Source: Schmidtea polychroa
Taxonomy: Eukaryota
Length of the DNA stretch: 64,000 bases
Assembly (NCBI GenBank): GCA_044892525.1
Contig: CM097886.1
Location: 2,790,001-2,854,000 of the forward strand
Direction: 5' to 3'
Made by a program: the position numbers and the translations under genes. Within the stretch, counting starts at the first letter, position 1. The number at the start of each line of letters is the position of its first letter. The notes below the pieces were generated by a model, which did not search any database, was not told where the DNA came from, and was given only the letters and a program-made list of their open reading frames with translations. Shown here in pieces: positions 12,331 through 43,799 of the stretch.

Positions 12331-15300
12331 TGTTGGGGTTACACCTCGGCTGACCGCTCTACCATATTGACGGGTCTAAGGGTTGATTGTCCATCTCGAA
12401 TAAAAGGTGCCACCGATTTGTCAACCTGGAGTGAAACCCCACATAATCTTTCTTCCAACATAGTGCCCGTGAATCACTTCACGTTGGTACTGCACTATGC
12501 AGGCGAGACACCAGCAAGCAGGTGAGCTTCTGCCTTGAAACTACTCCTTGCTGAGGCCTCGACTTCCCATTCACGACTGCCGATAGAAGGGCTTACGTCC
12601 ATTTCCTTACACAACCACTTATCAGGATTCGCTGAATGCAAATTGGGAATTTCTCACTAGATCCTGCGGGTTCTCTACTCAACCCACTTAATTAAAGTCT
12701 AATTATTCATGAACGAAAACGTGTAAGACAACAAGATTTATTAATTTCAACGTTATGACACAAGGATTCAGCTGTACACTTTACTAATGTTTGTCGAAAG
12801 AAGAGAAAACATCATAATCAACATAGATCGGATCCTTGTTCTTCATCCTGACCGCCACTGGGGTTCTATTGTTTCTCCCATTCAGCGTCGGCGAATAATT
12901 CGTCGAGGTTAAAAAACTCGGAAGCGTTCTCTTCCCACGTTACGCCAGCGGCTGATACGATTCGTGCTGAGGGTCCCGTTGTTAGGTCGATGGACACGTG
13001 AGAGTTACCACCGTTGGTTGAACCCTCTATTGATGGGATGGTTGGCTTTGTAGTGGCGCGTTCGCGCTGTCTCTTCTTGCGCTCTGCACGAGAGAGTTGT
13101 TTGCGCTTGGGTTTGCTTGAAGATGCCACTTGCAGAAGGGTGACAGGTACAGATGGACTAGCAGTGGGGGGCTTACTGGTACCCGTGACGACAACATCTG
13201 GTCGCTTGGGGGACAATTCGTTTTCGACGCAGTCTTGGCACGGTCTCTTGAACGGTGGAGATGGATTCGAGGAAAGGTTGTGATGGGGCGGAAAGATGTC
13301 ATCGGCCTCTCGGATGGGAATCTGCACTATTTTTCGGGTTGTAGCCGCCTGCACGTAAACCTTATGCAGTGCCTCGGATTGTTCTCTGATTAGACTTCTT
13401 TGGGCACGGCTCTCAGATATTAGCGCGTCCCGGCAATGCTCGCTACGATCGAGCTTCTTTTGGATCTCCTTCATCCGAGCGGGACTAAACCATGTCCCTT
13501 CCAGCTCGTCGATTTTTCGTTTATATCGACCGATCTGGGCTTGGAGATCTGTAATCACTGCATTTTTATCTGAGCAGGAGAAGCAGGGACGTAGAGCTGA
13601 TTTGTTGTTTGATAACATAATGGATGGCTAAAGAAGAAAACTATGGTGACTATATCTAAAAATTTCGGATCAGATATACGGTTTATTCGCTATTGGATAC
13701 TTAGTGCTGGAAGAAAACAAGACGAGTCGATGAAACAGGATCCCTCCCTTCACCCTTGATTACTAATAATTTACGTATCCTTTACAAAAATTATTCCTCA
13801 ACGCCCTGATTGCTTCCCTGACGAATGCAAATTATTTGTAAAAATTTTAATTTTCGTCTATCGCGTTCGAGTTGGATTTCTATCTATCGCACATAAAGGC
13901 AATTTACGGATTTGTTCATGCCGGAGTGAATAAACCTATTTCATTACAAATACACTATACTACACTTCGTTTAAATTTCGCTGATTATTTGTTGTTATTC
14001 TAATGCAAAATAAGGTTTTTGGACCACATGCGACTAGTAAAAACTTGCACCCTTACCTCAAGTAGCGGAATAAGTAACAACTCGTAATTTCGTATAAACT
14101 ATACGTCACTATTTTATGATTACCCCTTATCCATACCATACGGTGATATCGTCGTAGAAATATAGCATCGTAAAAATATTGTAATTACATAATAATTTGT
14201 TATCGGATTTAGTTTTCTATTACCATACGTCATTTACAGGGAATATGAGAAATTTAACTACAATATTACTAGCTATTTTATAACCCAAAAATTCCTGTAG
14301 ATACTTTAGTTAATTTAAATTTGGCTCGAAGGCTACTACTATTATTTGTAACATCTAATTAGAATTACGATAAACCTCTACAACACTTAGGTAAAACTTC
14401 CTATGGTTTAGTTATAAAGTTTGGTTTGAATTTTCGATTATTAATTAAAATACCCCTTCAACAATTTCGATTTTTATTTAGAATATTTAATTTAAGCAAA
14501 ATTATCTTTAATGAGTGCACTTTAGAGAGTCTCTTATCTTAGTAGTCGGTTACTGGTTATTTTGGCTTATCTTTTTAGTGGTACGAATGACCTTTATCAG
14601 TAGTGAAATTTAAGAGTCAGTCATCTGGAAGTCACATCTCATGTCAGCATTATCTAGTATGACCACTGATTACTACTCACACACTAAGAATCCTAGAGAG
14701 GGTGACACATGGCGGCATTCCCTGCGGTGAGAGGCATTCGGAATGATTCTGCTGTTTCTCATGCATATTTCTGACCGGATGACGCTACTCATAGTTATGT
14801 TAGCAGTATGTCTGTATGTATGGGTGCCTGTTCGATGGAAATTTTATCTGTAACTATCAACCGTACTGAGCGAACTGCAAATGTTACATCGCGTGTCGAT
14901 TCCCATCTGAGCTTATGATGTTGGATTTATTTACTACGACTCGTAATTTCCTCAATATTGGATGCTTTTGAACGATGGAAGATCTCTACGAACCAGCCAA
15001 CTAGACTCTATGAAGCATATTTCAGTAGTGGATATTTCGACGCAACAGCATGAAAATTATTCAATGGGTATTACCAGATTTTGTTAATATATGTGATTGA
15101 ATACAGTATTATTGTGGTTTTATGTTTTATTTTTCCCTTATTGTAAATTCCTCATCATATGCTAGGATTTGGATGTCGCATCTGAAAGAGATGACCTAAA
15201 TTAGAGTTACTTTTTCAAAAATCTACCGAATGCAATTTCAACTTCTCGATATGTTAGAAAACCAGCGATGGATGCTTAATGGTATTTTCCCCCACATGGT

Positions 15301-16490
15301 AAGTTCGGATTTATAGACAGAAGTGGCATGAATGTCTTGTAAGACGACTCTGGACAATACAGAGTTAATATGAGAACTCCCTCAGTCGCTGTGAAGCACA
15401 TATCCTATTTTCGAAAATTTCAGAAGGTTTCCTTTCGGTCTATATTTCGGTACTCTGACAGATTTTAAGTCCTTCAGCAATTGGACCCGTGAAGAAGCCT
15501 TCACATTTCGGCCCAATCTAGCTGCGTGATTGAAATACTCCATGTCCACCGGCTGAGCTCCCGAAGGCACCTCACACCATGACATGGAGTATCTCAACGC
15601 CACGTTTCTCGTTAATATTAGAAATCATAAAACTATCACTCAAAATAAATATCCATAAAAATTATGTAAGAGTTCACCTGTTACCAATAAATACTTTTAA
15701 ACATTTAAATTATTTACTTTATCAAAATCGTTATTCAGGATCAAATGAAAAGAGAGTCTGGTTAAATTTAAAAGTTTAATTGCTCATTAAATATACATAT
15801 TTACTATTAACTTCGAAAAACAATATCATAAATAAAAATCCCTTACTATGGAATTAGGCTGAATCGGAAAATTAACGTTAGTCGTTCCAAATTAGTCTGA
15901 TGATAGTTCGTCGAATGTCGATTGCTGTGACTGAGTTCGAATTGCTGTGAAGTTTTTCGAATTAACTGTTGCTCTACTTGTATTGCTGATCCTTGAAATA
16001 AGTCTCCGTGAGTTGTAGATGTCTATGAAATGCTCGGGGTTAACAGTAAAAACAGTAAACATTTTTCTTACCTATGAAATGCTCGGGGTTAACAGTAAAT
16101 TTAATGTTTTTGGTAGTTGTATATATATCAAATTCTTATTTGTGCGGACCAATCAGAGTTGAGTACCGCTTATTTCTATTAATTTAATATAATTTTCTTG
16201 TTTTTAGGTTGTTTTTTCCTTATTTTCTTTATTTTTAATATGTTTTTCTATTTATTTCCTTAATTTCCTTATTATTTCTTGAATTCCTCTTTATTTATTT
16301 GTCAACTTGTTCTATTTTAATCTTTTCTTAATTTTATTTTTTGTTTTAATTCTTATGTCTTAATTATTATCTTCCTTATATCTTATTCTATTTTATTTCT
16401 GATTTTATTTATTTTATTATTATTTTTCTTAATGTTCTACTTCCCTACTTTCTTATTTTTCAACGATTAAATTTCCGACTCAGCCCAACA
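12331..16490 (-). repeat. 3' LTR (4,160 bp)
   Basis: Direct repeat of 38572-42731; no difference seen in the segments compared by eye, and identical ORF sets in the ORF track. Confidence 0.97.
12866..13618 (-). CDS. LTR-encoded 250-aa protein of unknown function (3' LTR copy)
   Basis: Long GC-richer ORF: RPCxxC twice, coiled coil, basic KPKRKQLSRAERKKRQRER stretch, acidic/aromatic C-terminus. Acceptor ttttcttctttag 9 nt before the ATG; AATAAA at 12742-12737. Confidence 0.7.
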   Translation of the reverse strand: MLSNNKSALRPCFSCSDKNAVITDLQAQIGRYKRKIDELEGTWFSPARMKEIQKKLDRSEHCRDALISESRAQRSLIREQSEALHKVYVQAATTRKIVQIPIREADDIFPPHHNLSSNPSPPFKRPCQDCVENELSPKRPDVVVTGTSKPPTASPSVPVTLLQVASSSKPKRKQLSRAERKKRQRERATTKPTIPSIEGSTNGGNSHVSIDLTTGPSARIVSAAGVTWEENASEFFNLDELFADAEWEKQ

Positions 16491-16717
16491 AATCACTCGG
16501 GGACCCATCAAAATTGCGTCCCGCAATTGCATAATTAACTTAATTCATTCATTCGAAAAAAAAATATAACACGAACACGAAAAATTATACAACAATGATA
16601 AAAATTTTATTGTAAGATCAAGGTCAAAGCAAGATCAAGCAAGTATCACTTAAGGTGATAGTTTGTACATACAATAAAAGTTTCCACATATAATAACACA
16701 AATGTTTGAGTTAGAGT

Positions 16718-17374
16718 TTATGAACTGTTAACTATTGATGCTTCTGCTGGCGGCTGTTGGTTGGTTTGGGTATTAATGTTGAGATAGGTCTGACTATTAG
16801 ATTTCGGCTGGATTGGTTGATTACTCGGGGTTCGAGGTCGGTTAAGATTTGTCAGGGGCACTTCTTGAGGATTTTGGTTCGAGGTTACTCTTATTGATGT
16901 CGAGACTCTACATCTATTTCGAACTTCGTAAATTTTCATGAATATTGGTAGACATAGGAGGAGGGTTTCTGCGATCACCACATATATGAGATAATGGGTG
17001 TCATTGATTTCGGGAGGTATTTTTGGCTTTTCTACCAGATTCCCAAAATTCTCTTGTTGCATTTGTTGTTCCAACTGGTCGAATTGTTGAATTTGTTCGA
17101 GGATTTGTTTGTTTATCATTTTACAAATGGGATTCTTTTTACACATTGTTTGGATGTTGTTGATGTGTGATCGGGTTGATTGAATGGTTTGGATGATATG
17201 GGTTTTTACGGTCATCGGGTATGTGCATTGACTGGATTCTTGTTTAGGTTCTTGATTTTGATTTCGGTAATCTCGTACGATTTTCGGTTGGGCGTCTATT
17301 TGTTTGCTCTCCATCAGAATCATCAATACCATCATTGTTATCATCATCTCGCCTCGCATGATACTATTATACAT
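16718..17374 (-). CDS. 218-aa predicted type I membrane protein, unknown
   Basis: Met-rich signal MMITMMVLMILMESKQIDA|Q, Cys-containing helical ectodomain, TM YLIYVVIAETLLLCLPIFM, and a P/Q/N/T-rich tail. Confidence 0.7.
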   Translation of the reverse strand: MYNSIMRGEMMITMMVLMILMESKQIDAQPKIVRDYRNQNQEPKQESSQCTYPMTVKTHIIQTIQSTRSHINNIQTMCKKNPICKMINKQILEQIQQFDQLEQQMQQENFGNLVEKPKIPPEINDTHYLIYVVIAETLLLCLPIFMKIYEVRNRCRVSTSIRVTSNQNPQEVPLTNLNRPRTPSNQPIQPKSNSQTYLNINTQTNQQPPAEASIVNSS

Positions 17375-17414
17375 TCATTATGTTTATTTACAATTGGTTT
17401 TAATGACCCTTAAT

Positions 17415-18167
17415 TTAATGGTTCTGATTTGGATTATTTTCGCCGATTCTCATCAAGGTGGACTCTGCTTTAATTACCCTGTGTCTTAACTCGGGCAGCA
17501 TTTCCAATTGTCGGTCTTTTTCACGGGCTTCTCTCTTTAGATGTCTAATTTCTTTTTCCAAGCGTCTAATTTCTTCCCTTTTCTTTTCAAGGTTTCTTTT
17601 TAGCTCGATTTGTAGGAGATCTTGTTCGTTTTCTTGCAGGTAATTTTGTTGTTGATGTTTTCTTTCTATTTCTCTATATTTGCGGACCCACTTCCTCATT
17701 TCTTTACTTTCCCGTTGGTTTTCTTCTAGTTGTCGTTTTAATTTATTTATAGCTGTTTGGCGCTCCTTCGCCTCAGTTTTCCAGTAGTCTTGGATTACCT
17801 CCTTTGCTTTGAAGCTTGCCCTCTCTTTCCATAGTTCTTCCGCTATCTTTTCCCAGTTTTTCCCTCGCTTCCTTTGTTCGTGTAGCCATTCATTTTCCTC
17901 TTCCGTTTCTCTTTTTATTTCCCCCAACGCTTCGCACTCTTTCTTTAACACCTTTATCATTTTCCGGTCCTCCAGGTATTTGTTTATTAATCTCCCGTTT
18001 TCGTATTTCTCTTCCCGTAACTCGGCCTTTAGCGTTTGTGTTTCTGTTGTTTCTGCCTCAATCTCTCCCTCTTCTACGTCGCTCATAATTTCTATCATTT
18101 CCTCGATTTTCATATCTATAATATGTACAGTTAATGGTGCGCTATAGTGCGACTTATACGTATACAT
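17415..18167 (-). CDS. 250-aa (or 232-aa from ATG 18113) coiled-coil protein, unknown
   Basis: E/K/R-rich heptads with spaced Trp; attatag acceptor 2 nt before ATG 18113. Confidence 0.72.
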   Translation of the reverse strand: MYTYKSHYSAPLTVHIIDMKIEEMIEIMSDVEEGEIEAETTETQTLKAELREEKYENGRLINKYLEDRKMIKVLKKECEALGEIKRETEEENEWLHEQRKRGKNWEKIAEELWKERASFKAKEVIQDYWKTEAKERQTAINKLKRQLEENQRESKEMRKWVRKYREIERKHQQQNYLQENEQDLLQIELKRNLEKKREEIRRLEKEIRHLKREAREKDRQLEMLPELRHRVIKAESTLMRIGENNPNQNH

Positions 18168-18281: not shown

Positions 18282-19337
18282 TCATACGAAGGTTTCCTCC
18301 TGGCCTACATAACCTTCATCACTATCGACCGTGGAATGTAACTGTATCGCAATAGGGTCGTATGGTAGGTAATATTGGGGAATTTGAGCTCTCAATTCAC
18401 TAACTTCGTCTCTTAGAGCTCGAGTGATATTCAATTCCTCGTCGAGCAGATAGGTGAGATACCTTGTCTCTTCATCTTTCGCCTCTATCTGTTTGTCTAG
18501 GGCCTTGATTTTCTCGTCGCCCTTCCATTTTTCAATTTCTATTTCTAAGTTTTTAATATTTTCGGTGTACATTTTCCTTTCGTTTTCTAATTTTCTGTTT
18601 TTTCCCGCTAGGACCATGTTTCTTTGTTCCAGCGATCCTTGTAATCCATTAAGGTCTCTTTTCATCTCTTCTACCTGATTTACTAATTCCACAACCCGTC
18701 CCGCTTGTTGGGTTATCATCTCTTCCATTGCGGCATTCTCGTGCTCTCTTATGTCGCACTTCATTGCCAAATGTCGCTCAAACTCCATAGCCTTTGTTTG
18801 CCAGGTTTGGCTTCGGGCGGCGACCTTTCTCAACCTTTTCAATTCTTCCTTTATTATTAAATTCTCCTCCCATTTACCTTGTTCGCTTTCATATCCGAGT
18901 CTCCTGGGCAATTCTTTCATCTCTTTTTTCATGTCTCTGTTTTGTCTTTTCCATTTTCTCGCTTCTGCCACTAAGTGCATCATTTTCCTGTCTTCTATTT
19001 GCTTTTCCGCTTCGCGCTTGGTGTTCTCATCGGTAAGTCTTTTTCTCGCTTCCTGCACTAGCTGCTTTAAGTAGTGGCTGTGTGCTTCTTGGCGGGTATT
19101 TTCTAGTGACGCCCATTTTGATGCTCTTTTGCATGCTTCTGCTTCCGCTCTTAAGTTGTGTATTAACCATTGGTATTGACTATTCTCATCTTCTCTAGTT
19201 TCTTCGATGTGATTTCGGGTGAGATTAGTTAGTTGGAACATTACTTTGTTCCATTTTTTGTTATGTTCTCGGGGAATTTGTGTCTTGTTGACATTGGTTG
19301 GGTCTATCGCAGTTTCGGTTATTTTCTCTTGTGTCAT
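18282..19337 (-). CDS. 351-aa coiled-coil protein, unknown
   Basis: Long E/K/R-rich heptad ORF; tttag acceptor 2 nt before the ATG. Confidence 0.75.
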   Translation of the reverse strand: MTQEKITETAIDPTNVNKTQIPREHNKKWNKVMFQLTNLTRNHIEETREDENSQYQWLIHNLRAEAEACKRASKWASLENTRQEAHSHYLKQLVQEARKRLTDENTKREAEKQIEDRKMMHLVAEARKWKRQNRDMKKEMKELPRRLGYESEQGKWEENLIIKEELKRLRKVAARSQTWQTKAMEFERHLAMKCDIREHENAAMEEMITQQAGRVVELVNQVEEMKRDLNGLQGSLEQRNMVLAGKNRKLENERKMYTENIKNLEIEIEKWKGDEKIKALDKQIEAKDEETRYLTYLLDEELNITRALRDEVSELRAQIPQYYLPYDPIAIQLHSTVDSDEGYVGQEETFV

Positions 19338-19530: not shown

Positions 19531-20919
19531 TTATTCCGTTCTACCCTTCTCCTCTTTCCTCACGGTCATCTTGATATATATGGTATCATTTCTCGCCATA
19601 TCTTCTACTCTTTGTTGTGAGATGAACGTAGGTGCTCCTGTTGCTGATCCTTCTTCGTTGAGGGGCCTCTGGTAAGCTATTTGATTCCCCGTTGTTTTGA
19701 AGCTTTGCTCATATATACTTTGGTTGTTCATCAGAGTAATATCGATTTTTGCCTGGAACGGCCATTCTAATATTTCGTCGTATTCTCCTTTACATAACAG
19801 AAAGAAAATCGAAAAGTGCGTATCTAATCCGGTTCCGTCCCCGTTGGGATATAGCTTCATTTTCATTTTGTACCCATTTTTCCAAGAATGGAATGTAGGA
19901 CTTGTTATTCTTGTCTCTTCTCCGGTTTTTGCTTTTCGTATTCTTTCTTTTACTCCCGTTATTTTCCATATGTAGGGTGCTGTTGGGGTTATCTCATTTA
20001 GATTTATTTCCCGTATTTTCTGATGTAGCTCCTTGGCCTGATTATTACTAATTTCTGTTCGGTTTATTTGCATCTTTATGTTTGCTCGGGCTTCTTCGAA
20101 CGCTTTCCTTTCTTCTAGTAGTTCTTTGACTAACACTTTCAACGATGTTATCTCTATCTCCATTTGTTTTACTTTCTCTTCGCTTTCTTGTAACGCAGTC
20201 GACCACATTTCTGCGTGAGTTGAAGCATTTTCTACTAAATGATGTGGTAACTCACCTCGGTGTAGTAATTTCTGACAACCCCATCTACCTAGTACACATG
20301 TCATTCTTTTCTTTTCGCATTCCCTTAGATGCTGTGCCACCTTTATTGTTTCCCCTTGGTTACATCCGTTTGGGCATTCCCCACTGAACTCCGCACATAC
20401 TCTCTCCTCTTGGACATTGTGATGTTTGAGGGTGAGATTTATCCACGTATCTATTTCTCCACAGTGTTCACATCTTTCCAATCTCTCCTCACACTGCCTT
20501 TGATGCTCTTTTTCTTCGCTTGCTCGAATGGTTTTATGGCACCTTTCACACTGGCCAATTCTGTACATACATTCTCCCATATGTTGTACTACCTTCCATA
20601 TTACTCCTTTCCATTCGCATGGGGCATTTTTGCATCCCAGGTTGGTGTTTAACATGTCTTTCACTGCGGCTTTATCCTCGTTAGTGTCTTCTAAACTCGA
20701 TATTAGTGTCTCTTTACACACCGGGCACCTTTGTGGTCTATTCTTTATTGCTTCACTGATACATTCTTTACATACTCTGCATCCACATTGCGTTTGGTGA
20801 GGTTCCTTTAACAACTTTTCACATATTCCGCACATAACATGTTTGTGTATTCTGATCGTTGTAGATTTTCGGACTTGCTCGACAATCTCTCTGAACTCTT
20901 CTCTTTGTCGTTTATCCAT
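19531..20919 (-). CDS. TRAF: Intronless full-length TRAF homologue (RING, zf-TRAF repeats, coiled coil, MATH), 462 aa
   Basis: CGIC..CGCRVCKEC..CPVC; five Cys/His fingers; YIWKI...SPTF...GYKMKMKLYPNGDGTGLDTHFSIFFLLCKGEYDEILEWPF...G.PTF. Confidence 0.93.
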   Translation of the reverse strand: MDKRQREEFREIVEQVRKSTTIRIHKHVMCGICEKLLKEPHQTQCGCRVCKECISEAIKNRPQRCPVCKETLISSLEDTNEDKAAVKDMLNTNLGCKNAPCEWKGVIWKVVQHMGECMYRIGQCERCHKTIRASEEKEHQRQCEERLERCEHCGEIDTWINLTLKHHNVQEERVCAEFSGECPNGCNQGETIKVAQHLRECEKKRMTCVLGRWGCQKLLHRGELPHHLVENASTHAEMWSTALQESEEKVKQMEIEITSLKVLVKELLEERKAFEEARANIKMQINRTEISNNQAKELHQKIREINLNEITPTAPYIWKITGVKERIRKAKTGEETRITSPTFHSWKNGYKMKMKLYPNGDGTGLDTHFSIFFLLCKGEYDEILEWPFQAKIDITLMNNQSIYEQSFKTTGNQIAYQRPLNEEGSATGAPTFISQQRVEDMARNDTIYIKMTVRKEEKGRTE

Positions 20920-21004
20920 TCTATAATTATATGTACAAATAGTTCTTATCGATACAGGTTCGATATTTTATTTACAATTATTTACATTTTGAGCTAGGTT
21001 TGGT

Positions 21005-21364
21005 TTAGGGTTCGGAAGAGTCGGCTTCGTGTCCGCTCTCCTCTCTATTCATTAGCCATTCCGACCAGTCTTCTATTTCTGTCTGTTCTGCTTCCTCCAT
21101 CATTCTGTCTATTTCAATTTCCTGTCGACGGCTATATTGGGTTATCCTCTCTATCTCTCTTTGCATTTGTTCGATTTTTAACCTCTGGTCTTCAATTATC
21201 TTCAAATAACTAAATCCTCTGTTCATACTCTCGATCAGGTTTCTGTGCATCGTCAGTCCTTGTTCTTGCAAATTGGACACTAATTGTGCTAATACGGCAC
21301 ATTGTTGCTTCCATAATTCTTCAGTTACTGTATTGTGGTTCATTTCGTTATTTCCTTGATCCAT
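21005..21364 (-). CDS. 119-aa coiled-coil protein, unknown (track start is a TTG at 21388; first ATG at 21364)
   Basis: Same strand and purine-rich composition as neighbouring ORFs; TAG acceptor 2 nt before the ATG; AATAAA at 20972-20967. Confidence 0.65.
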   Translation of the reverse strand: MDQGNNEMNHNTVTEELWKQQCAVLAQLVSNLQEQGLTMHRNLIESMNRGFSYLKIIEDQRLKIEQMQREIERITQYSRRQEIEIDRMMEEAEQTEIEDWSEWLMNREESGHEADSSEP

Positions 21365-21524: not shown

Positions 21525-22526
21525 CTATATACGTGAGTTTGGAGGGCGCTGAGCGTTCCAGGCCTCCACCCACTGTTCTTGTTTGATATCACTTGGTCGT
21601 TTCACTCGATGTTGGAAATTTCTGATTCGAGTCATCTCTAGTTCTCCGCGATGTCGTTTACCCTTAATTATTTTTATTGTTCCCCCCGTTATGATTAAGA
21701 ATGCCCCTGTTATTATTATCCCACTGATCCACATCATCTGCTTCACGCTTATACTCTCTGGTTTTTCCTGGTTTGTTAATGTTGATATTGCTTCTGTACT
21801 TTTCTCGTTCCCTCTTTTGCCGTTTCCTTTCATCCTTTCCCGTATTCTTGCTATTTCCTCGTTCATACCCTCCTTTGCCATCTTTTGTATTTTTTCCATC
21901 TCTTCTTCCGAAACATAGTTGTCCTGAGCTTCCTCGCCGGTTTTCTTGTGCTTTCCTCCTTCGTCCTTTTCGTCGTGGTTTTTCCTTTTCTTTCCTCTTT
22001 TCCCCGGGTATCGTCGGCATTCTCTTTTTGATTCGTTTCTCCAGATACAAACCGTATATTCCTTCGGGGGCTGCTGCTGCGTCACATATTGATGGCATCT
22101 CTCACCCGGTCCTAATCTTGAAATACAGACTTTGTGCTCTTTTCTTGGTTGGAGCTGCGTTATTACTACTTCGCCACCTTTTCCTAGGTGTACCTCTTTT
22201 CCTTTAACGTTCGTTATTCTTTTCCCGTCTCGGTTTCGGTATGCTTCTTGTATTCTTACTTCTGTTATTGGTTCTGTGTCCTCATTTATCAGTACTAGTT
22301 TCTGATACGCTCTAGACATGCATCTTCCTAGTATGCACCTTTCCTTTAAGTCCCATTCTTCCTTTAAATCCCACTGCTGCTCTTGTGCTTGCTTTTTCTT
22401 TTCTTGTTTTAGTTCGTCCTCTTTGCTATCTTGATTCTCCGCTTCTTTGGTTTCTTTTATCGTCCTCGTCCCTCCATGAGCTGTTACTAACTCTATCATG
22501 GTAAGCATAATTATCATTAATATCAT
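21525..22526 (-). other. C-terminal second membrane-protein module (signal-like segment, Cys-containing ectodomain, TM, short tail)
   Basis: MILMIIMLTMIELVTA|HG (22526-22479); VVITQLQPRKEHKVCI, resembling an FN3 strand motif; TM MMWISGIIITGAFLIITGGTIKII (21737-21666). Confidence 0.6.
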
Positions 22527-31500: not shown

Positions 31501-34500
31501 TGGTTATTAGTCCACATTTCGGCTCCTGTCGGCCATCTCACTAATAGCGGTGATCTTTCTCCTGGTTCATCGTCACTATCTTCCAGGATTATCTCTTCAA
31601 CTTCTTCAGTTTCATTAGATTTACTTGGTGCTTTGTTCGGACTTGGAGTACTCAAACTGCCTTTTGTTGGTTTAATAATTTTACTTTTCCTTTTTAACGG
31701 TTTTCCCAACGTTTCTGCCATTGTTAACACATTTGTCTCTTCCAATCTCATGGGTGTTATCCCGACGTCTGCATTATCGTCTAGTGATTTTCCGAACAGT
31801 TGCAGATGGAATGGAGTTTCATATGCTAATTTCTTTTTTAATTCTCTAATTTTTGTTGTTGGATGCACCTCTAGTTCCTCGATGCTCTTGTCCGGATACT
31901 TGATTCGGATGTGATACCTCTCCTGAGTGTCTTGTGCCCATTCCTGATTTCTCCATTTTCGAATAATTTGTTCTAGCTGTTCTGGATACCATTCATTATA
32001 TTGCCGGTATTCCTCTATTGCCTTTGCCATTCCTCTCAGATTGTGGATGTTCTCTGATGTCTTTAAGATGATGTTAGCCAACGCTACTACTTGGCGTTTT
32101 TGATTTTTCGCTCCCATTGCTAAGATATCGCCTAATTGTTTATATCTTTCTGTCTCTTCTCGTTCTCTTGCTTCCGTCGCTTCCTCGCCGTCCATATCAG
32201 CATATTCACGTTCCTTTTTCCTCATTGCATGAATATGTCTCGCTTCATTTTCGCTTTCTGATGTGACATCCGTCTCGCTTTCGTCATCTGATGTCTGTCC
32301 CCTTGCTTCCTCTTCATATTCTGGGGGTTCCTCTTCTTCTTCCTCCGATTCACTTTCTGTCTCACCAATGTCTGTTTCTACGAAGATTCCTTTCCGGATT
32401 TCCCATTCCTTACTTTCTGCATTCCACACTCTTTCCCATGGGGTTCGTCTGCAGGATCTGGTATTTAATTTCGTGATTTTTCCTTGTAGCTCTTTTTCTT
32501 TTAACCATTGTTGGTGGATTTCAATTATTTCTGTCGATTTTTGATACAACGTTTTCATCCGGTCTCGTATTTCTTTTTGATATGTTACATCTCTTGTTCG
32601 GAATTCATCCATTGGTACTATCCTGATTATCTGATGATTGTCCCACATACCCATTTCGCTTAACGAGGTGTCGTCCTCCGCTCGTAATATTATCTTATCG
32701 TACATCATGACTACATCATCCACCATACCATCACTACTTTCGCTACGTACCTTTTCCGTTATCTCTTGGTTTATTTTTGATACCAAGTCATCCACTGTAC
32801 TCTGATTGCTCATTCTTATTCGTCGTTTTTCTTCGTTCGGTAACCATATGGTTATTTCCAACCTCTGTGGCTGGGTTTCTTTTAACCTTCCATATTTGTG
32901 GATCAAATTTATGGTTCTCCAATCACTCATTCGGAGCATTTCTGTATCTCGCAACCGGCTCATTAGTTCGTACATGGCTGGGGCTCGTCTGGTGATGAGT
33001 AAATCCCAGTTGTCTTCTACTTGTTCTTGAATTTGTTTGATCAGCTTATCCAGGTTTCGTCTCAGAGTACATTGTTTTATTTGTTCTAATTTCAATTTGA
33101 TATTAAAATCATATTCTGCCTTGGCATCTTTAGCCCAATCGTAAAGGTGGGCTGGTTGTTTTTCTTTATGCAACTTCAGTATTTGCGTTTCTCCTGGCCA
33201 TATTAGTGCATCTACTAAGTGCATATCTGGTTTGATCCGTCCTCCTTGGTATTGATACAGATATTCTTTCTTTCTCGAACTTCCCAAATGTTCTCGTATC
33301 CAATCGAAAAGTTCGTCGGTGACTGTATTTTTTATCCACATTCTTTCAAGTCCTCTACTCGTTCCAATTTTTATTACATACCGCGTGGTATCGGCCTGCT
33401 TCATTTTTTCCATATAGTTTTTTATAATTGGTTTTTCCTCGTTTGGTATTAGATCTTTCTCGTTTCTTTCCAATTTCATCACTTTTTGCACGAATCGCCT
33501 GAATGGTATTACGTCGATGAACTCTTGGTTCCTCACTACTACTGGGAGTATTTCGGCTACCTGTTTTATCGCTTCCTCCCTTGCTTTTCTCAACTTTATT
33601 TCGATATCTTCGTCTTCACTTTCGCTGGTTATCTCGTTTCCGCTTTCTTCCTCTTTGATTTCCCCTTTTGAGGGTTCGCTTATTTCATTCGGCTGTAGTA
33701 TTTCTCCACCCAAACTACTTACATAATCTTCTTCTTCGTCTGACGATGCTACATCTTTTGTCCTTTTCATCATATTGATTTGCAAGTTTCTCATCCTTGG
33801 TACTCTCTTTAGTTTCTTTCTTTCGAATATTGTTGTTTCTTCTGATTCTGATTCTTGTAGCATTTGGTGATTTAGTTGACTGGTTTGTTCCTCGCTCTTG
33901 TTATTTTCATCTTCTGTCTCAGTTTTCGCTTTATTATGTTCTTTTTCGATTTTATCCTTTATCTTTTTCCAGAATATTTTCTGAATTCTCTGGTTTCCCT
34001 TTGAAATCGTGGTTGAATTCTCTGTTTTCATTTCCGTTGTTATTTCCTTTACTTTTTCTGGTTCAGTCATGGGTACTACCCTTGGGCTTTTCCCGTAATT
34101 GTAGCAATACTGGCTCTTCATGTCTTTTACTAACTTCATCATATTTATTCGCAATGGTTGTTCTTGTCGTTGTTGGTTGCGTTCTTGTTTTATCCTCTCT
34201 TCCTCGGCCTGTAGCCTTTGCCATTCTTGTACATGTTGATGCACTTCATAATTGTTGAGATTTTCGGTACTCCTCATCATACGTATATTCTGGGTTTGTT
34301 GTGGTGCTGATTCTTGTCTTGGTCTCATCATTTGTTGCATCATCTGTTTCATCTGCGAAATTTCCTGCATAACGTTCATTTGTTTTCCTTCGTTAGGGTT
34401 ACTTTGTCGTTGCGGATTCGCTATATAATTATTATTTCGCTGTGGTGGTCGTTGTTGTTGGCCCCTTTCTCGGCAATCTCTGGAGATGTGACCTGGCTGA

Positions 34501-35378
34501 CCACAGTTAAAACAGCCTCGCAATTGGCATACATTTTCGGTATGTCCACGCCGTCCGCAACGATTACAATTTGAATTTCTATAACAATCTCTGTCCCAGT
34601 GTCCTGGTTTACCGCATGTTCGGCACTGCTTGTTATCGTTCATATTTCGCCGATTATTGAAATTGTTCTCATTATTCGGGTTGTTACGATTACCATTATT
34701 CCCGTTTGATCGTCCTTGTGGTGGTTTGAAAATTTGGTGCGCTCCTGGTATAAATTGATTCATTTTCGGTTCTTGATTGTTGTTATCTCCGTTATCCGCT
34801 TTCGCTATTGCTGTCGCTATCCTTCCCTCCTCTTGCATAATATTCATTTGAGCTGGAAGGTGGAGCTCGCATCTTGTAGCCCAATCTATGGCTTCCTCTA
34901 ATGTTTTGCACATTTGACAACCTACTGAGGCTCTTACTTCTTCTCGGCGTAATCCCTCTATGAAATAACCAATCAGATTTTCTTCGGGTAATTTTCCATT
35001 CATTGCTTTCTTCGCTAATCTCCGCAATTCACTGGCATATAATGTTATCGATTCGTTTGCTCTTTGTTTCCTATTTGCTAGTTCGCCCAACGCCTGGTTG
35101 ATTGGCTTACTGGCTCCGAAGGTTTTCTTCAGGAATGTTTTAATATCTTCCCACTTTTCTAATTTCGTGTCTCTCTCTTTAGCTTCTAAATATACCTCTA
35201 ATGCACTATCGCACAAAAACAACGGCATCCTTTTACTAATTGCTTCGGGTGTCCATCCACACACAGTGATATAAACTTCAAAATTAGTTATGAACGTTGC
35301 TAGCTTGTTTGCATTTCCGTTGAACGGTTCTCCTCTGAACTTCTCTTTATACTCGTCGGTTTTTACGACATTCGTCAT
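21525..35378 (-). CDS. 4,617-aa single-ORF polyprotein: Gag-Ubl x3-Bcl2-like-Env-PR-RT-RH-IN-ANK-membrane module
   Basis: Uninterrupted ORF; domain motifs are itemised in the following features. Confidence 0.95.
   Translation of the reverse strand: [4617 protein letters not shown]
22995..24500 (-). other. Two ankyrin-repeat blocks (24020-24500, 22995-23475) fused downstream of integrase
   Basis: [48 protein letters not shown]. Confidence 0.85.
24800..25860 (-). other. Integrase (HHCC, DDE, GPY/F)
   Basis: HDGRLGGH...CLTC; [34 protein letters not shown]. Confidence 0.95.
26150..27420 (-). other. pol: Reverse transcriptase (YIDD 26930-26919) and RNase H
   Basis: [75 protein letters not shown]. 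Confidence 0.97.
27600..28200 (-). other. Aspartic protease (DTG at 28148) followed by a dUTPase-fold-like spacer
   Basis: [12 protein letters not shown]...IIGTDLM; spacer [15 protein letters not shown]...IPLNITNF. Confidence 0.85.
28791..30587 (-). other. env: Envelope glycoprotein, chuvirus (Jingchuvirales) G-like / class III fusogen-like, with internal signal peptide and TM anchor
   Basis: Signal [21 protein letters not shown] (30587-30528); YDC, [51 protein letters not shown]...LFPA motifs; furin-like REKR (29795-29784); TM [25 protein letters not shown] (28865-28791). Confidence 0.8.
30700..31170 (-). other. Bcl-2-like helical domain
   Basis: BH2-like [14 protein letters not shown] and a divergent BH1-position segment [16 protein letters not shown] at Bcl-2-like spacing; the NWGR motif is not conserved. 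Confidence 0.55.
31719..33386 (-). other. Three ubiquitin/SUMO-like modules (33168-33386, 32613-32861, 31719-31916)
   Basis: Each about 65-85 aa with a beta-grasp-like pattern, e.g. [30 protein letters not shown]...[10 protein letters not shown] and [29 protein letters not shown]. Recognised by eye only. Confidence 0.55.
34473..35378 (-). other. gag: Gag region: capsid-like domain plus three CCHC zinc knuckles (aa 252-302)
   Basis: [19 protein letters not shown]...W; [42 protein letters not shown]. Confidence 0.9.
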
Positions 35379-36632: not shown

Positions 36633-37150
36633 CTTTACGACTGGCTGGCACTATTCAACAGCTCAATCTTCTTCCTTCTGATCGGTTGGACTATTCAACA
36701 ACTCAATCTTACGACTGGCTGGCACTATTCAACAGCTCAATCTTCCTCCTTCCTGATCGGTTGGACTTTTCACAACTCGACCTTACGACTGGCTGGCACT
36801 ATTCAACAGCTCAGTCTTCCTCCTTCCTGATCGGTTGGACTTTTCACAACTCGACCTTACGACTGGCTGGCACTATTCAACAGCTCAATCTTCCTCCTTC
36901 CTGATCGGTTGGACTTTTCACAACTCGACCTTACGACTGGCTGGCACTATTCAACAGCTCAATCTTCCTCCTTCCTGATCGGTTGGACTTTTCACAACTC
37001 GACCTTACGACTGGCTGGCACTATTCAACAGCTCAATCTTCCTCCTTCCTGATCGGTTGGACTTTTTCACAACTCGACCTTACGACTGGCTGGCACTATT
37101 CAACAGCTCAATCTTCCTCCTTGACCGGCTGGATTATTCGACAGCTCGGC
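36633..37150. repeat. Tandem array of a 74-bp unit (about 6.7 copies) in the element leader
   Basis: Unit starts at about 36634, 36707, 36781, 36855, 36929, 37003 and 37078. Confidence 0.93.
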
Positions 37151-37743: not shown

Positions 37744-38229
37744 TCATTCGCCATAATAGACCATATGGGTCTCTTTTATTTCATATTTGCACATCGTGCA
37801 TCTTTTTAGGTCTTTTACACACTCTTCACAGTGACTGAGGTGTCCACACGGCAAGAATAATACGCGAATAGGACGGAGTTTGCAGGCTATACAAGTTCGT
37901 AATTGGTTAACTTTTTCCTGTATTTTTTGTTCGATTGCATCTGGTATTGTATTTAGTGGGTCTTTTAGACGCTGATAATCTAGATTTAATGTTGGGTGGT
38001 TCAATCTCTCTTGATACCACTGATATACGGTTTCGGGGTTTATTTTTCCATCTGGGCGACTTAGGCCTGTGGCTAATATCATATGATTAGGTACGACTGG
38101 TGTTTGTCCGATTGCTTGCAGTAATATCGCGTTGATTTTTTCTCTTTTATGCGTCAGTGTTGTTAGGGAGTCGTTTTCTATATCGATAAACTTGAGCAGT
38201 TGTTGCATTTGGTTCGCGAATTCTGTCAT
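37744..38229 (-). CDS. 161-aa protein with C-terminal IAP/MDM2-type RING finger (no BIR seen)
   Basis: CIACKLRPIRVLFLPCGHLSHCEECVKDLKRCTMCKYEIKETHMVYY, near the C-terminus; acceptor ttttccaacag 2 nt before the ATG. Confidence 0.85.
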   Translation of the reverse strand: MTEFANQMQQLLKFIDIENDSLTTLTHKREKINAILLQAIGQTPVVPNHMILATGLSRPDGKINPETVYQWYQERLNHPTLNLDYQRLKDPLNTIPDAIEQKIQEKVNQLRTCIACKLRPIRVLFLPCGHLSHCEECVKDLKRCTMCKYEIKETHMVYYGE

Positions 38230-38564: not shown

Positions 38565-39106
38565 AAAATCATGTTGGGGTTACACCTCGGCTGACCGCTC
38601 TACCATATTGACGGGTCTAAGGGTTGATTGTCCATCTCGAATAAAAGGTGCCACCGATTTGTCAACCTGGAGTGAAACCCCACATAATCTTTCTTCCAAC
38701 ATAGTGCCCGTGAATCACTTCACGTTGGTACTGCACTATGCAGGCGAGACACCAGCAAGCAGGTGAGCTTCTGCCTTGAAACTACTCCTTGCTGAGGCCT
38801 CGACTTCCCATTCACGACTGCCGATAGAAGGGCTTACGTCCATTTCCTTACACAACCACTTATCAGGATTCGCTGAATGCAAATTGGGAATTTCTCACTA
38901 GATCCTGCGGGTTCTCTACTCAACCCACTTAATTAAAGTCTAATTATTCATGAACGAAAACGTGTAAGACAACAAGATTTATTAATTTCAACGTTATGAC
39001 ACAAGGATTCAGCTGTACACTTTACTAATGTTTGTCGAAAGAAGAGAAAACATCATAATCAACATAGATCGGATCCTTGTTCTTCATCCTGACCGCCACT
39101 GGGGTT

Positions 39107-39859
39107 CTATTGTTTCTCCCATTCAGCGTCGGCGAATAATTCGTCGAGGTTAAAAAACTCGGAAGCGTTCTCTTCCCACGTTACGCCAGCGGCTGATACG
39201 ATTCGTGCTGAGGGTCCCGTTGTTAGGTCGATGGACACGTGAGAGTTACCACCGTTGGTTGAACCCTCTATTGATGGGATGGTTGGCTTTGTAGTGGCGC
39301 GTTCGCGCTGTCTCTTCTTGCGCTCTGCACGAGAGAGTTGTTTGCGCTTGGGTTTGCTTGAAGATGCCACTTGCAGAAGGGTGACAGGTACAGATGGACT
39401 AGCAGTGGGGGGCTTACTGGTACCCGTGACGACAACATCTGGTCGCTTGGGGGACAATTCGTTTTCGACGCAGTCTTGGCACGGTCTCTTGAACGGTGGA
39501 GATGGATTCGAGGAAAGGTTGTGATGGGGCGGAAAGATGTCATCGGCCTCTCGGATGGGAATCTGCACTATTTTTCGGGTTGTAGCCGCCTGCACGTAAA
39601 CCTTATGCAGTGCCTCGGATTGTTCTCTGATTAGACTTCTTTGGGCACGGCTCTCAGATATTAGCGCGTCCCGGCAATGCTCGCTACGATCGAGCTTCTT
39701 TTGGATCTCCTTCATCCGAGCGGGACTAAACCATGTCCCTTCCAGCTCGTCGATTTTTCGTTTATATCGACCGATCTGGGCTTGGAGATCTGTAATCACT
39801 GCATTTTTATCTGAGCAGGAGAAGCAGGGACGTAGAGCTGATTTGTTGTTTGATAACAT
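39107..39859 (-). CDS. LTR-encoded 250-aa protein (5' LTR copy, identical translation)
   Basis: Same as 12866-13618. Confidence 0.7.
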   Translation of the reverse strand: MLSNNKSALRPCFSCSDKNAVITDLQAQIGRYKRKIDELEGTWFSPARMKEIQKKLDRSEHCRDALISESRAQRSLIREQSEALHKVYVQAATTRKIVQIPIREADDIFPPHHNLSSNPSPPFKRPCQDCVENELSPKRPDVVVTGTSKPPTASPSVPVTLLQVASSSKPKRKQLSRAERKKRQRERATTKPTIPSIEGSTNGGNSHVSIDLTTGPSARIVSAAGVTWEENASEFFNLDELFADAEWEKQ

Positions 39860-42263
39860 AATGGATGGCTAAAGAAGAAAACTATGGTGACTATATCTAA
39901 AAATTTCGGATCAGATATACGGTTTATTCGCTATTGGATACTTAGTGCTGGAAGAAAACAAGACGAGTCGATGAAACAGGATCCCTCCCTTCACCCTTGA
40001 TTACTAATAATTTACGTATCCTTTACAAAAATTATTCCTCAACGCCCTGATTGCTTCCCTGACGAATGCAAATTATTTGTAAAAATTTTAATTTTCGTCT
40101 ATCGCGTTCGAGTTGGATTTCTATCTATCGCACATAAAGGCAATTTACGGATTTGTTCATGCCGGAGTGAATAAACCTATTTCATTACAAATACACTATA
40201 CTACACTTCGTTTAAATTTCGCTGATTATTTGTTGTTATTCTAATGCAAAATAAGGTTTTTGGACCACATGCGACTAGTAAAAACTTGCACCCTTACCTC
40301 AAGTAGCGGAATAAGTAACAACTCGTAATTTCGTATAAACTATACGTCACTATTTTATGATTACCCCTTATCCATACCATACGGTGATATCGTCGTAGAA
40401 ATATAGCATCGTAAAAATATTGTAATTACATAATAATTTGTTATCGGATTTAGTTTTCTATTACCATACGTCATTTACAGGGAATATGAGAAATTTAACT
40501 ACAATATTACTAGCTATTTTATAACCCAAAAATTCCTGTAGATACTTTAGTTAATTTAAATTTGGCTCGAAGGCTACTACTATTATTTGTAACATCTAAT
40601 TAGAATTACGATAAACCTCTACAACACTTAGGTAAAACTTCCTATGGTTTAGTTATAAAGTTTGGTTTGAATTTTCGATTATTAATTAAAATACCCCTTC
40701 AACAATTTCGATTTTTATTTAGAATATTTAATTTAAGCAAAATTATCTTTAATGAGTGCACTTTAGAGAGTCTCTTATCTTAGTAGTCGGTTACTGGTTA
40801 TTTTGGCTTATCTTTTTAGTGGTACGAATGACCTTTATCAGTAGTGAAATTTAAGAGTCAGTCATCTGGAAGTCACATCTCATGTCAGCATTATCTAGTA
40901 TGACCACTGATTACTACTCACACACTAAGAATCCTAGAGAGGGTGACACATGGCGGCATTCCCTGCGGTGAGAGGCATTCGGAATGATTCTGCTGTTTCT
41001 CATGCATATTTCTGACCGGATGACGCTACTCATAGTTATGTTAGCAGTATGTCTGTATGTATGGGTGCCTGTTCGATGGAAATTTTATCTGTAACTATCA
41101 ACCGTACTGAGCGAACTGCAAATGTTACATCGCGTGTCGATTCCCATCTGAGCTTATGATGTTGGATTTATTTACTACGACTCGTAATTTCCTCAATATT
41201 GGATGCTTTTGAACGATGGAAGATCTCTACGAACCAGCCAACTAGACTCTATGAAGCATATTTCAGTAGTGGATATTTCGACGCAACAGCATGAAAATTA
41301 TTCAATGGGTATTACCAGATTTTGTTAATATATGTGATTGAATACAGTATTATTGTGGTTTTATGTTTTATTTTTCCCTTATTGTAAATTCCTCATCATA
41401 TGCTAGGATTTGGATGTCGCATCTGAAAGAGATGACCTAAATTAGAGTTACTTTTTCAAAAATCTACCGAATGCAATTTCAACTTCTCGATATGTTAGAA
41501 AACCAGCGATGGATGCTTAATGGTATTTTCCCCCACATGGTAAGTTCGGATTTATAGACAGAAGTGGCATGAATGTCTTGTAAGACGACTCTGGACAATA
41601 CAGAGTTAATATGAGAACTCCCTCAGTCGCTGTGAAGCACATATCCTATTTTCGAAAATTTCAGAAGGTTTCCTTTCGGTCTATATTTCGGTACTCTGAC
41701 AGATTTTAAGTCCTTCAGCAATTGGACCCGTGAAGAAGCCTTCACATTTCGGCCCAATCTAGCTGCGTGATTGAAATACTCCATGTCCACCGGCTGAGCT
41801 CCCGAAGGCACCTCACACCATGACATGGAGTATCTCAACGCCACGTTTCTCGTTAATATTAGAAATCATAAAACTATCACTCAAAATAAATATCCATAAA
41901 AATTATGTAAGAGTTCACCTGTTACCAATAAATACTTTTAAACATTTAAATTATTTACTTTATCAAAATCGTTATTCAGGATCAAATGAAAAGAGAGTCT
42001 GGTTAAATTTAAAAGTTTAATTGCTCATTAAATATACATATTTACTATTAACTTCGAAAAACAATATCATAAATAAAAATCCCTTACTATGGAATTAGGC
42101 TGAATCGGAAAATTAACGTTAGTCGTTCCAAATTAGTCTGATGATAGTTCGTCGAATGTCGATTGCTGTGACTGAGTTCGAATTGCTGTGAAGTTTTTCG
42201 AATTAACTGTTGCTCTACTTGTATTGCTGATCCTTGAAATAAGTCTCCGTGAGTTGTAGATGT

Positions 42264-42390
42264 CTATGAAATGCTCGGGGTTAACAGTAAAAACAGTAAA
42301 CATTTTTCTTACCTATGAAATGCTCGGGGTTAACAGTAAATTTAATGTTTTTGGTAGTTGTATATATATCAAATTCTTATTTGTGCGGAC
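42264..42390 (-). promoter_or_regulatory. Candidate LTR promoter/leader: CCAAT box, TATA-like tract, 28-bp direct repeat x2 enclosing a GTAAG donor (also 16023-16150)
   Basis: ggaccaatcag, then a TATATA tract, then repeats at 42340-42313 and 42291-42264; minus strand reads ...catag|gtaagaa. Confidence 0.45.
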
Positions 42391-43799
42391 CAATCAGAGT
42401 TGAGTACCGCTTATTTCTATTAATTTAATATAATTTTCTTGTTTTTAGGTTGTTTTTTCCTTATTTTCTTTATTTTTAATATGTTTTTCTATTTATTTCC
42501 TTAATTTCCTTATTATTTCTTGAATTCCTCTTTATTTATTTGTCAACTTGTTCTATTTTAATCTTTTCTTAATTTTATTTTTTGTTTTAATTCTTATGTC
42601 TTAATTATTATCTTCCTTATATCTTATTCTATTTTATTTCTGATTTTATTTATTTTATTATTATTTTTCTTAATGTTCTACTTCCCTACTTTCTTATTTT
42701 TCAACGATTAAATTTCCGACTCAGCCCAACACTATACTGTTGTTTATTTTTTTGTAAACTCAAAATAAAACNNNNNNNNNNNNNNNNNNNNNNNNNNNNN
42801 NNNNNNNNNNNNNNNNNNNNNNNNNNNNNNNNNNNNNNNNNNNNNNNNNNNNNNNNNNNNNNNNNNNNNNNNNNNNNNNNNNNNNNNNNNNNNNNNNNNN
42901 NNNNNNNNNNNNNNNNNNNNNNNNNNNNNNNNNNNNNNNNNNNNNNNTTAGGCGGACATGCGAGGCGGAAATGCAGTTTCCAATAACAATTTCAGTAATA
43001 AATTTGACATAAACAATAAATAAATTTTAGGGCACTAGAAATAAACGATTTGTAAAGATTATATATTTAATAACTAACTATATCTTCATTTATATTATTT
43101 AAATTAATATGAAAATTCCTTTCTACAGAATTAATTTTTTATTTATTCAGAATCTAATTGACGATTTTTTTAGTTGCAATTTGAAATTAGTCTGATTGTG
43201 TACATTCTTGGGATGATATGCCCAAAATGCCACTGGAATGGGGAATTTTGAATTGAAACGTAAATAAACAAATTAAATTCGATTAACTGCCAGACATAAA
43301 GGTGGTCTCTATTCACGGTCTTAACCTTTTCTTTTTACTCAATTTTGTGAAGCCAAGATTATTTCCCTACTACTGTTTGAAATCAGATATATCATTAATA
43401 ATTTTATTTATGATATTTGTATCAATTTTATTTTTTCAATAATCAAACAATACAAAAATAGAAATATATTGAAATTGTGCAGTAAATTTAGTTCCTAGAG
43501 CTTTCTGTTGACAGGAATAACTCGCATAGTACAAGTTCGATCAGTGCGGTTTCAGTATATTACCTGTTTTTAATTTTTATTTTTTAAATAAATATTTACA
43601 GTAAACATTTTGATTGGTTTTTCGCAGTTTAATGTTTTTCTTAGTCGATTCTTGTGATACATGTTTTTTTGTTTTTTTTACAGTTAATTGTGCCATGCAT
43701 ATAATGTGCGTGGTTGTAACGTGGTTACGCATGTTTCGTTGTAGTTTTGTGATATTTTTCCTTTTCTATCAGCTTTCTATTTTCAACTCTAGGCTAAAG

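Follow-up and report, generated by a model that had tools for sequence, protein, structure and literature searches.

A 30.4-kb Burro-like Ty3/gypsy element with an in-frame gB-type Env in an intron of Schmidtea polychroa: probably a young, provirus-like copy

A stretch of 64,000 nucleotides from Schmidtea polychroa (assembly GCA_044892525.1, contig CM097886.1, positions 2,790,001 to 2,854,000 of the forward strand), in the following termed the window, contains an element of more than 30 kb bounded by long terminal repeats (LTRs), and the locus raises the question of what kind of element this is and whether the copy is young and complete. An earlier note on this DNA had proposed an intact, giant Gypsy element that was probably recently mobile; it was silent on the envelope protein (Env) encoded within the main reading frame, the Bcl-2, TRAF and IAP-RING cargo, the host gene, the missing polypurine tract and a run of N beside one junction. 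With a probability of about 0.78, we regard it as a Burro-like Ty3/gypsy element present in a young and intact, provirus-like copy, i.e. an errantivirus of the GAG-ENV-POL type with a herpesvirus gB-type Env, most likely of a planarian host and inserted by its own integrase, for which a model of expression is proposed below. Its anatomy, its intact enzymes, the gB-like fold of its Env and its clean insertion are established. Size, in-frame Env and apoptosis-related cargo have already been published for Burro elements, so the kind is known; what goes beyond the routine is the completeness of the copy and a conserved membrane module at the end of the polyprotein.

Boundaries, insertion and polyprotein

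The LTRs, reported earlier as equal in the parts compared, are not diverged over their full length: 4,160 of 4,160 bases are equal, with 0 mismatches and 0 gaps in the self-comparison of the window and in a full alignment. The pair is the single long direct repeat in the self-comparison, and the bases flanking it on the outside are unlike each other. Since every long open reading frame (ORF) between the LTRs lies on the minus strand, the right-hand copy is the 5' LTR (Table 1). The termini TGTTGGG...CCCAACA form a 7-bp inverted repeat, and the element is enclosed by the duplication CTAT, a 4-base match expected by chance in about 0.8% of cases at flank composition; a 5-bp duplication does not fit the flanks. 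The primer-binding site is complementary to an 18-nt tRNA 3' end terminating in CCA and, compared by eye, equals the Pro primer site given in the supplement of PMC13524379 at 11 of 12 bases. Duplication, inverted termini and primer site are thus present as the earlier note had it. On the sense strand, TGATT adjoins the inner end of both LTRs (38,565-38,571 after the 5' LTR and 16,491-16,495 before the 3' LTR) and may mark extra bases of linear cDNA ends. The lack of any difference puts an upper limit of 7.2e-4 per site on the divergence of the LTRs, which corresponds to an insertion age of less than about 36,000-360,000 generations at assumed rates of 1e-8 to 1e-9, a figure that gene conversion would bias downward.

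The insertion lies antisense in a host phosphodiesterase gene, six plus-strand exon stretches of which match Pfam PDEase_I, all six in order. The exon at 6,693-6,842 ends at position 109 of PF00233 and the exon at 44,762-44,884 resumes at 111, and no phosphodiesterase exon is missing across the insertion. Because of the CTAT duplication and the host exons in phase on either side, the flanks belong together; joined flanks are, however, no proof that polishing has left the LTR bases untouched.

The interior sense strand is rich in A (40.9%) and in purines (62.6%), as had been remarked before, and GC content is about 38-40% in the element versus about 25% in the flanks. The tandem array in the leader retains variants at the level of its 74-bp units, two of which gave an RNA fold with z -2.7, as expected of a repeat; the folds of the primer site (z -0.9) and of the 3' junction (z -0.3) were no better than those of shuffled sequences. 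Rfam at E values up to 1 gave 0 matches within the element, ARAGORN predicted 0 tRNAs, and a further copy of the element is not found within the window.

ORF1, the long frame without a stop described in the earlier note, acquired at least 282 stops in each of 200 shuffles. The encoded polyprotein is ordered as Gag, Bcl-2-like segment, signal peptide, Env, membrane anchor, protease, reverse transcriptase (RT), RNase H, integrase and ankyrin repeats. The catalytic residues of all four enzymes are present and are matched in each of the 15 aligned relatives. All 15 also share with the element a domain of about 110 aa, conserved between protease and RT where Burro has a dUTPase-like domain, that no Pfam or PDB match names. 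TG...CA LTRs, target-site duplication, tRNA primer site and the protease-RT-RNase H-integrase order with intact catalytic residues are features of Ty3/gypsy, whereas the gB-type Env and the order GAG-ENV-POL in an uninterrupted frame are those of the gB-type errantiviruses. Hydrophobic peaks lie at aa 1601, 2182, 4285 and 4553, with a weaker fifth at 3264 inside the integrase. A hydrophobic-Asn/His/Cys/Ala motif occurs 10 times against a shuffled mean of 4.9 (30 of 1,000 shuffles as high); this pattern was picked afterwards, four of its occurrences stand at domain borders, and as a cleavage site of the element's protease it is a weak candidate that was set aside.

Table 1 Features of the element and its insertion site in the window
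Feature	Position	Strand	Remarks
Whole element	12,331-42,731	minus	30,401 bp, interior 22,081 bp
5' LTR	38,572-42,731	minus	4,160 bp; right-hand copy
3' LTR	12,331-16,490	minus	same sequence as 5' LTR; AATAAA at 12,742
Target-site duplication CTAT, left copy	12,327-12,330	plus
Target-site duplication CTAT, right copy	42,732-42,735	plus
Candidate signals in 5' LTR	TATA 42,368; AG/GTAAG donors 42,312 and 40,297; AATAAA 38,983		predicted from sequence only
250-aa LTR ORF, 5' copy	39,107-39,859	minus	51% GC; ATG preceded at 9 nt by a strong splice acceptor
250-aa LTR ORF, second copy	12,866-13,618	minus
Primer-binding site, tRNA-Pro type	38,564-38,547	minus	18 nt, 7 nt past 5' LTR
161-aa ORF, C-terminal IAP-type RING	37,744-38,229	minus	Pfam zf-C3HC4_3 E 3.4e-11; cIAP RING structures E 2.6e-10
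74-bp tandem repeat	36,635-37,122		6.6 copies, 97% matches, in leader
ORF1 polyprotein	35,378-21,525	minus	13,854 bp, 4,617 aa from first ATG; 4,732 codons stop to stop
Gag: Retrotrans_gag and three CCHC knuckles	34,473-35,225	minus	Pfam E 3.1e-09 and 7.7e-10
Ubiquitin-like domain (weak)	31,716-31,919	minus	Pfam ubiquitin E 0.0036, below cut-off; about aa 1154-1221
Bcl-2-like domain, BH1-to-BH2 part	30,711-30,929	minus	BH1 motif diverged
Internal signal peptide 1	30,528-30,581	minus	aa about 1600-1617; by hydropathy
Env ectodomain, chuvirus-type, class III (herpesvirus gB) fold	28,869-30,527	minus	Pfam PF24664 E 1.7e-70
Env membrane anchor region	28,704-28,868	minus	core aa 2178-2196
Aspartic protease	27,915-28,190	minus	DTG at aa 2411
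RT and RNase H	26,199-27,251	minus	YIDD at aa 2817; D-E-D-D present
Integrase	25,179-25,877	minus	HHCC and D-D-35-E
Two ankyrin-repeat blocks	23,184-24,455	minus	Pfam Ank_2 E 4.8e-16 and 1.6e-06
Terminal module	21,525-22,532	minus	signal peptide 2 at aa about 4283-4302, then 257 aa with 6 Cys, an anchor (from aa 4553) and a tail of 53 aa
119-aa ORF	21,005-21,364	minus	no family
462-aa full-length TRAF-like protein	19,531-20,919	minus	RING, Cys/His region, coiled coil, MATH; Pfam MATH_2 E 5.6e-27; TRAF1/2/3 structures E about 1e-27
351-aa charged coiled-coil-like ORF	18,282-19,337	minus	no family above cut-off
250-aa charged coiled-coil-like ORF	17,415-18,167	minus	no family above cut-off
218-aa ORF	16,718-17,374	minus	N-terminal hydrophobic segment and one anchor
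Host phosphodiesterase intron	6,843-44,761	plus	GT...AG, phase 0, 37,919 bp; contains element antisense

Relatives, Env and the terminal membrane module

Relatives of the RT-RNase H region were searched among proteins of 2,539-8,080 aa, and the best 120 of 215 matches were examined, 17 of which carry PF24664 in frame. An RT phylogeny, a step that the earlier note had proposed, was obtained by a quick search on 111 rows after 10 of the 120 matches had been dropped for short RT coverage; in it, the sequence from the window falls together with every one of the 17 polyproteins in the rows that have Env in frame, at a value of 98 in the approximate likelihood ratio test of the SH type (SH-aLRT), the best RT-RNase H identity being 59% (P0092). 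These polyproteins (P0092-P0099, P0101-P0103, P0105, P0109, P0111, P0113, P0119, P0120) resemble that of the window in having Gag, Env and Pol in one frame, in some cases with a Bcl-2-like segment ahead of the Env signal and in most with a terminal signal-ectodomain-anchor module; unlike it, they are shorter (2,627-4,057 aa), and some contain extra protease-like copies or Ig domains. The ankyrin repeats precede the protease in P0092 but follow the integrase in the window. The weak ubiquitin-like domain has a counterpart in the corresponding region of P0092 (E 4.4e-05), and three concordant sub-threshold matches were obtained overall at the place where Burro has its Ubi2/SUMO-like domain, ahead of BCL2; two more stretches (aa about 665-740 and 838-921) that look ubiquitin-like to the eye are supported by no match. 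Among the polyproteins examined, P0094, P0097, P0105, P0109, P0111, P0121 and P0123 contain two or three aspartic-protease-like domains, some after the Env anchor and some after the integrase, and P0119 has a dUTPase (E 6.9e-21) between Gag and Env, not after the protease.

In alignments, signal peptide 1 corresponds to the signals at the N-termini of glycoproteins that stand alone; in 79 of 90 of these, the Env start motif is found no more than 50 residues from the N-terminus, and a hydrophobic peak ahead of this motif is present in the window and in 14 of the 17 relatives. An AlphaFold2 model of aa 1456-2240, built on a 77-row alignment (A1), has a mean predicted local distance difference test (pLDDT) value of 79.7; the alignment misaligned the Bcl-2 part, and that part of the model was set aside. 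With this model, Foldseek found gB of herpes simplex virus 1 as best match (E 1.5e-13), and all 39 matches listed are herpesvirus gB, at low template modelling scores of mostly about 0.3. As modelled, Env is a class III fusogen of the herpesvirus gB type. The best Env identity among 275 database proteins is 42%. Hand counts over 187 ungapped positions (aa 1652-1838) gave about 102 of 187 identical residues (about 55%) for Smed_errantivirus_5 and about 46% for Smed_errantivirus_6, and the other four S. mediterranea elements printed in PMC13524379 look more distant, though they were left uncounted. Judged by these segments, the nearest named Env kin are planarian (S. mediterranea), and the element is none of the six published S. 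mediterranea Env elements. A matching by span to these six entries (14.5-18.0 kb) was dropped, as the spans given in PMC13524379 may include added flanks.

At least two strong hydrophobic peaks within the last 700 aa were found in 10 of the 17 Env-in-frame relatives versus 1 of the 103 other polyproteins. The 103 controls are mis-predicted or fused gene models and not matched elements, and the relatives share ancestry; for these reasons, the peaks document conservation of the terminal module, not its function. The terminal segments enclosed in the relatives are mostly rich in cysteines and sequons and are unrelated in sequence to that of the window, which has a single N-glycosylation motif; in P0099 and P0103, an Ig domain starts directly after signal 2. 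The module is a candidate for a second surface glycoprotein, and if it were a second virion protein, the element would possess a two-protein entry system, which is unusual for retroelements. The passages of PMC6431247 and PMC13524379 on which we draw make no mention of such a second module, and it may already stand in Grohme 2018, Lee 2026 or Sacco 2022.

Accessory reading frames and the host locus

The seven further intact ORFs noted earlier are present on the same strand, i.e. six internal ones of 161, 119, 462, 351, 250 and 218 aa and the 250-aa ORF, which lies inside each LTR. For the latter, no family was found, and the best ESM Atlas match (0.84) is unnamed. Of 3,416 candidates, 7 are database relatives of the TRAF ORF, and those that bear a name are TRAF3-like at 27-35% identity. 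When a Smc-like coiled coil as in Burro1-4 was sought, the charged 250-aa ORF matched Rad50 at E 0.0069, far below the cut-off, and the 218-aa ORF would encode a small type I membrane protein. Third-position A amounts to 39-47% in the seven internal ORFs, including those for TRAF and RING, versus 28% in the LTR ORF, and because of this similarity the cargo appears to have long shared the bias of the element.

A T-rich YAG lies within 10 nt of the ATG in 4 of the 7 accessory ORFs versus 9 of 112 ATGs outside coding sequence (p about 0.001, at a threshold chosen afterwards), and the accessory ORFs are probably expressed by splicing. Downstream of the TATA-like box by 30-100 nt, a perfect 28-bp direct repeat is present at 42,264-42,340 and again in the 3' LTR; its first copy ends at an AG/GTAAG donor, its second copy does not. 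The 161-aa RING ORF is followed by AATAAA at 37,639 and 37,601 and a T-rich tract. In line with the outsized genomic RNA of tens of kilobases expected in the earlier note, such an RNA would need 26,241 nt plus R, and about 29.6 kb would result if the start follows the TATA-like box.

The catalytic domain of the host cyclic-nucleotide phosphodiesterase, which we take to be PDE4-like, extends over 6,095-51,470 on the plus strand with at least 6 exons and introns down to 44 nt. Outside the remnants of transposable elements, the flanks have 20-34% GC, CpG is not depleted, and introns of 44 and about 55 nt occur. The next-but-one host intron harbours a broken, small and unrelated gypsy-type remnant with pieces of protease, RT and integrase (45,508-49,486), including an inverted duplication of 670 bp (45,546-46,216 and 48,269-48,932, 97.6% identical); between the inverted copies, a 100-aa stretch (47,760-48,059, minus strand) presumably resembles the last part of a DNA polymerase of family B, and Pfam gave no such match. 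Several fragments of hAT-like transposases are located at 79-1,271, 2,365-2,628 and 4,540-4,770 (by eye) and at 11,563-11,937 (Pfam Dimer_Tnp_hAT E 6.6e-07). The right flank also contains short tandem arrays with 17-bp and 14/28-bp units at 50,705-50,791 and 62,780-62,934, and an open frame of 160 codons (63,521-64,000, plus strand), without a Pfam family, leaves the end of the window.

Interpretation and comparison with known systems

In the model that we propose for this young, provirus-like copy, an RNA of 26-30 kb would be transcribed from the 5' LTR; its reverse transcription would start from a tRNA-Pro primer and take place inside a particle made of Gag. ORF1 would be read without a frameshift as one chain threading the membrane of the endoplasmic reticulum (ER), with Gag and the ubiquitin-like and Bcl-2-like domains in the cytosol, Env between signal 1 and its anchor in the lumen, protease, RT, RNase H, integrase and ankyrin repeats again in the cytosol, and the second ectodomain between signal 2 and the last anchor in the lumen. 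Signal peptidase and the element's protease would release the parts of this chain, and the signal remaining behind the Bcl-2-like domain could serve as its tail anchor. The accessory ORFs would be expressed from spliced RNAs in which a short exon from the LTR is linked to acceptors shortly ahead of their start codons; Bcl-2-like, IAP-RING, TRAF and ankyrin products would dampen the host cell's apoptosis as well as its TNF/innate signalling, and Env would enable the passage of particles between cells.

Several points weigh against this interpretation. Ty3/gypsy LTR elements usually have a polypurine tract beside the 3' LTR, whereas here none was found before it, the best stretch within 120 nt having 8 of 10 purines and none lying at the junction; judged from one copy, the element may use a non-canonical plus-strand primer. 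From a single ORF, equal amounts of Gag, Env and Pol would result, which is not the case in most LTR elements. Two candidate poly(A) sites ahead of ORF1 require read-through or splicing out, an adjacent splice acceptor is absent for 2 of the 7 accessory ORFs, and the branch of the window in the quick-search tree is long (1.02). No BIR domain was found by Pfam in the 8 of 8 ORFs, and a six-frame scan gave no BIR motif on the sense strand. The Bcl-2-like segment alone, with its diverged BH1, reaches only E 0.02-0.09 in Pfam, under the cut-off. A profile of seven segments (window and six relatives) matches Bcl-xL from BH1 to BH2 at E 7.8e-06, behind one designed repeat protein; as the six relatives were picked for a GGW-like motif, the BH2 part of this match is circular, and the BH1 part is not. 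Pfam Bcl-2 is matched by 6 of the 7 profile members, the segment of the window standing at E 0.023. Searches with the segment alone gave nothing among PDB sequences and no usable match in the ESM Atlas, and a single-sequence model of the region (pLDDT 49) was uninformative, its fold search returning only generic helical bundles (best Z 7.1). When the Bcl-2-Env region was compared with shorter proteins, 0 of 7,998 scored candidates passed, a limit of sensitivity, since a profile search found 1,007.

The earlier claim of a young, competent and recently mobile copy stands as far as zero LTR differences and intact catalytic residues carry it; beyond that, it is drawn from one assembled copy without a polypurine tract, in which polishing or gene conversion can equalise LTRs. 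That reads of many similar copies were collapsed or polished, so that equal LTRs and clean frames are partly products of assembly, is unlikely in our view: Burro repeats are a known obstacle to assembly (PMC11410931, PMC13238120), and the flanks contain four N runs of 137-189 bases, one beginning 40 bases outside the junction at 42,731, but the duplication and the in-phase host exons tie the flanks together, the 74-bp array keeps its unit-level variants, and even a collapsed consensus would imply a young family. It is very unlikely that the copy is a recent dead end, unable to make its own plus-strand DNA or full-length RNA, as the missing purine tract and the poly(A)-like signals ahead of ORF1 might suggest, because equal LTRs and a duplication testify to a finished round of replication by a nearly identical parent, and the absence of the tract may be family-wide.

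A quite possible alternative, though not the one we expect, is that mobility is purely intracellular and that Env and the terminal module are kept for particle assembly at the ER or as decoys in host signalling, not for infection. Infectivity is unreported in the literature consulted on such elements, the copy numbers given in PMC13524379 (up to 215 in S. mediterranea) are stated there to be no direct evidence of current activity, and the terminal segment with its single N-glycosylation motif lacks similarity to the relatives' ectodomains; Env, in contrast, retains across the clade its signal, its cysteines, its anchor and a gB-like fold modelled with confidence, which fits selection for fusion. 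Pointing the other way, and put forward as a doubtful conjecture, is the view that the clade is a true lineage of enveloped viruses with an RNA genome of 26-30 kb, in which two surface proteins would be cut from the one membrane-threading chain: the conserved gB-type fusogen and, for attachment or immune evasion, a type I glycoprotein at the end that changes fast (Ig-like in some members). These would be accompanied by a Bcl-2/IAP-RING/TRAF/ankyrin kit like that of DNA viruses, with plus-strand priming independent of a purine tract and the present copy being currently infectious. Rather unlikely is a tolerated or mutualist element whose family persists because anti-apoptotic products help host stem cells, as for Burro1, for whose BIR-RING protein (B-IAP) a protective effect on stem cells is reported (PMC13465017, citing Lee et al. 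2026). The element does carry an IAP-type RING, a Bcl-2-like domain and TRAF, but the BIR half of B-IAP is absent, and equal LTRs indicate a new insertion and not an old domesticated locus; mutualism and a young provirus do not exclude each other.

If the copy is the young provirus that we favour, its usefulness lies in being complete and apparently very young, with defined LTRs and primer site and an intronic insertion open to genotyping. With it, one can test how RT and the shell of Gag cope with an RNA of at least 26 kb, how Gag, Env and Pol are supplied from one ORF, and whether particles pass between cells or animals.

Among known systems, the plant Ogre elements of the Tat clade share long LTRs and extra ORFs with the element, their interior being only 11-13 kb (PMC6431247), and Drosophila gypsy is likewise an Env-bearing Ty3/gypsy element, but with a separate F-type env after pol (PMC13524379). 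Closer are the gB-type GAG-ENV-POL elements described from nematodes, bryozoans and flatworms, for most of which several near-identical genomic copies exist (PMC13524379). Smed_errantivirus_1-6 agree with the element in Ty3/gypsy Pol, in the gB-type Env between Gag and Pol and in the signal and anchor flanking Env; LTRs and primer sites, unlisted for them in the parts of PMC13524379 referred to here, are both defined in the window. The closest architecture is that of Burro1-4/GYPSM1 of Schmidtea mediterranea and an element of Dugesia tigrina, as characterised in sections of PMC6431247, with a total of more than 30 kb, an interior of up to 25 kb and one giant ORF near 5,000 aa, which encodes Gag with two or three knuckles, MATH, Ubi/SUMO-like and BCL2-like domains, Env in frame ahead of the protease, and dUTPase-like, ankyrin and BIR domains. 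Such elements occur in planarians of the Dugesiidae and Geoplanidae (PMC6431247, PMC13465017), and BURRO1 is described as abundant, active and PIWI-controlled (PMC8532177). The giant Gypsy of the earlier note is therefore a Ty3/gypsy element of Burro architecture, and its size is no surprise. It shares with Burro the domain order, including Env between BCL2 and protease, three CCHC knuckles, ankyrin repeats, MATH/TRAF cargo, accessory ORFs and a tandem repeat. ORF1 comprises 4,617 aa here versus 4,873 in Burro1 and 5,140 in D. tigrina, and MATH is located in the downstream, complete TRAF ORF here, inside ORF1 in Burro1 and upstream in D. tigrina, domains shifting between ORF1 and accessory ORFs also within Burro (PMC6431247). 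Burro1-4 possess a BIR domain, whereas the element has an IAP-type RING without BIR, and because of this absence it is filed as Burro-like and not among Burro1-4. Judged by the published descriptions and by its Env against the six printed segments, it constitutes a new Burro-like family, distinct from Burro1.

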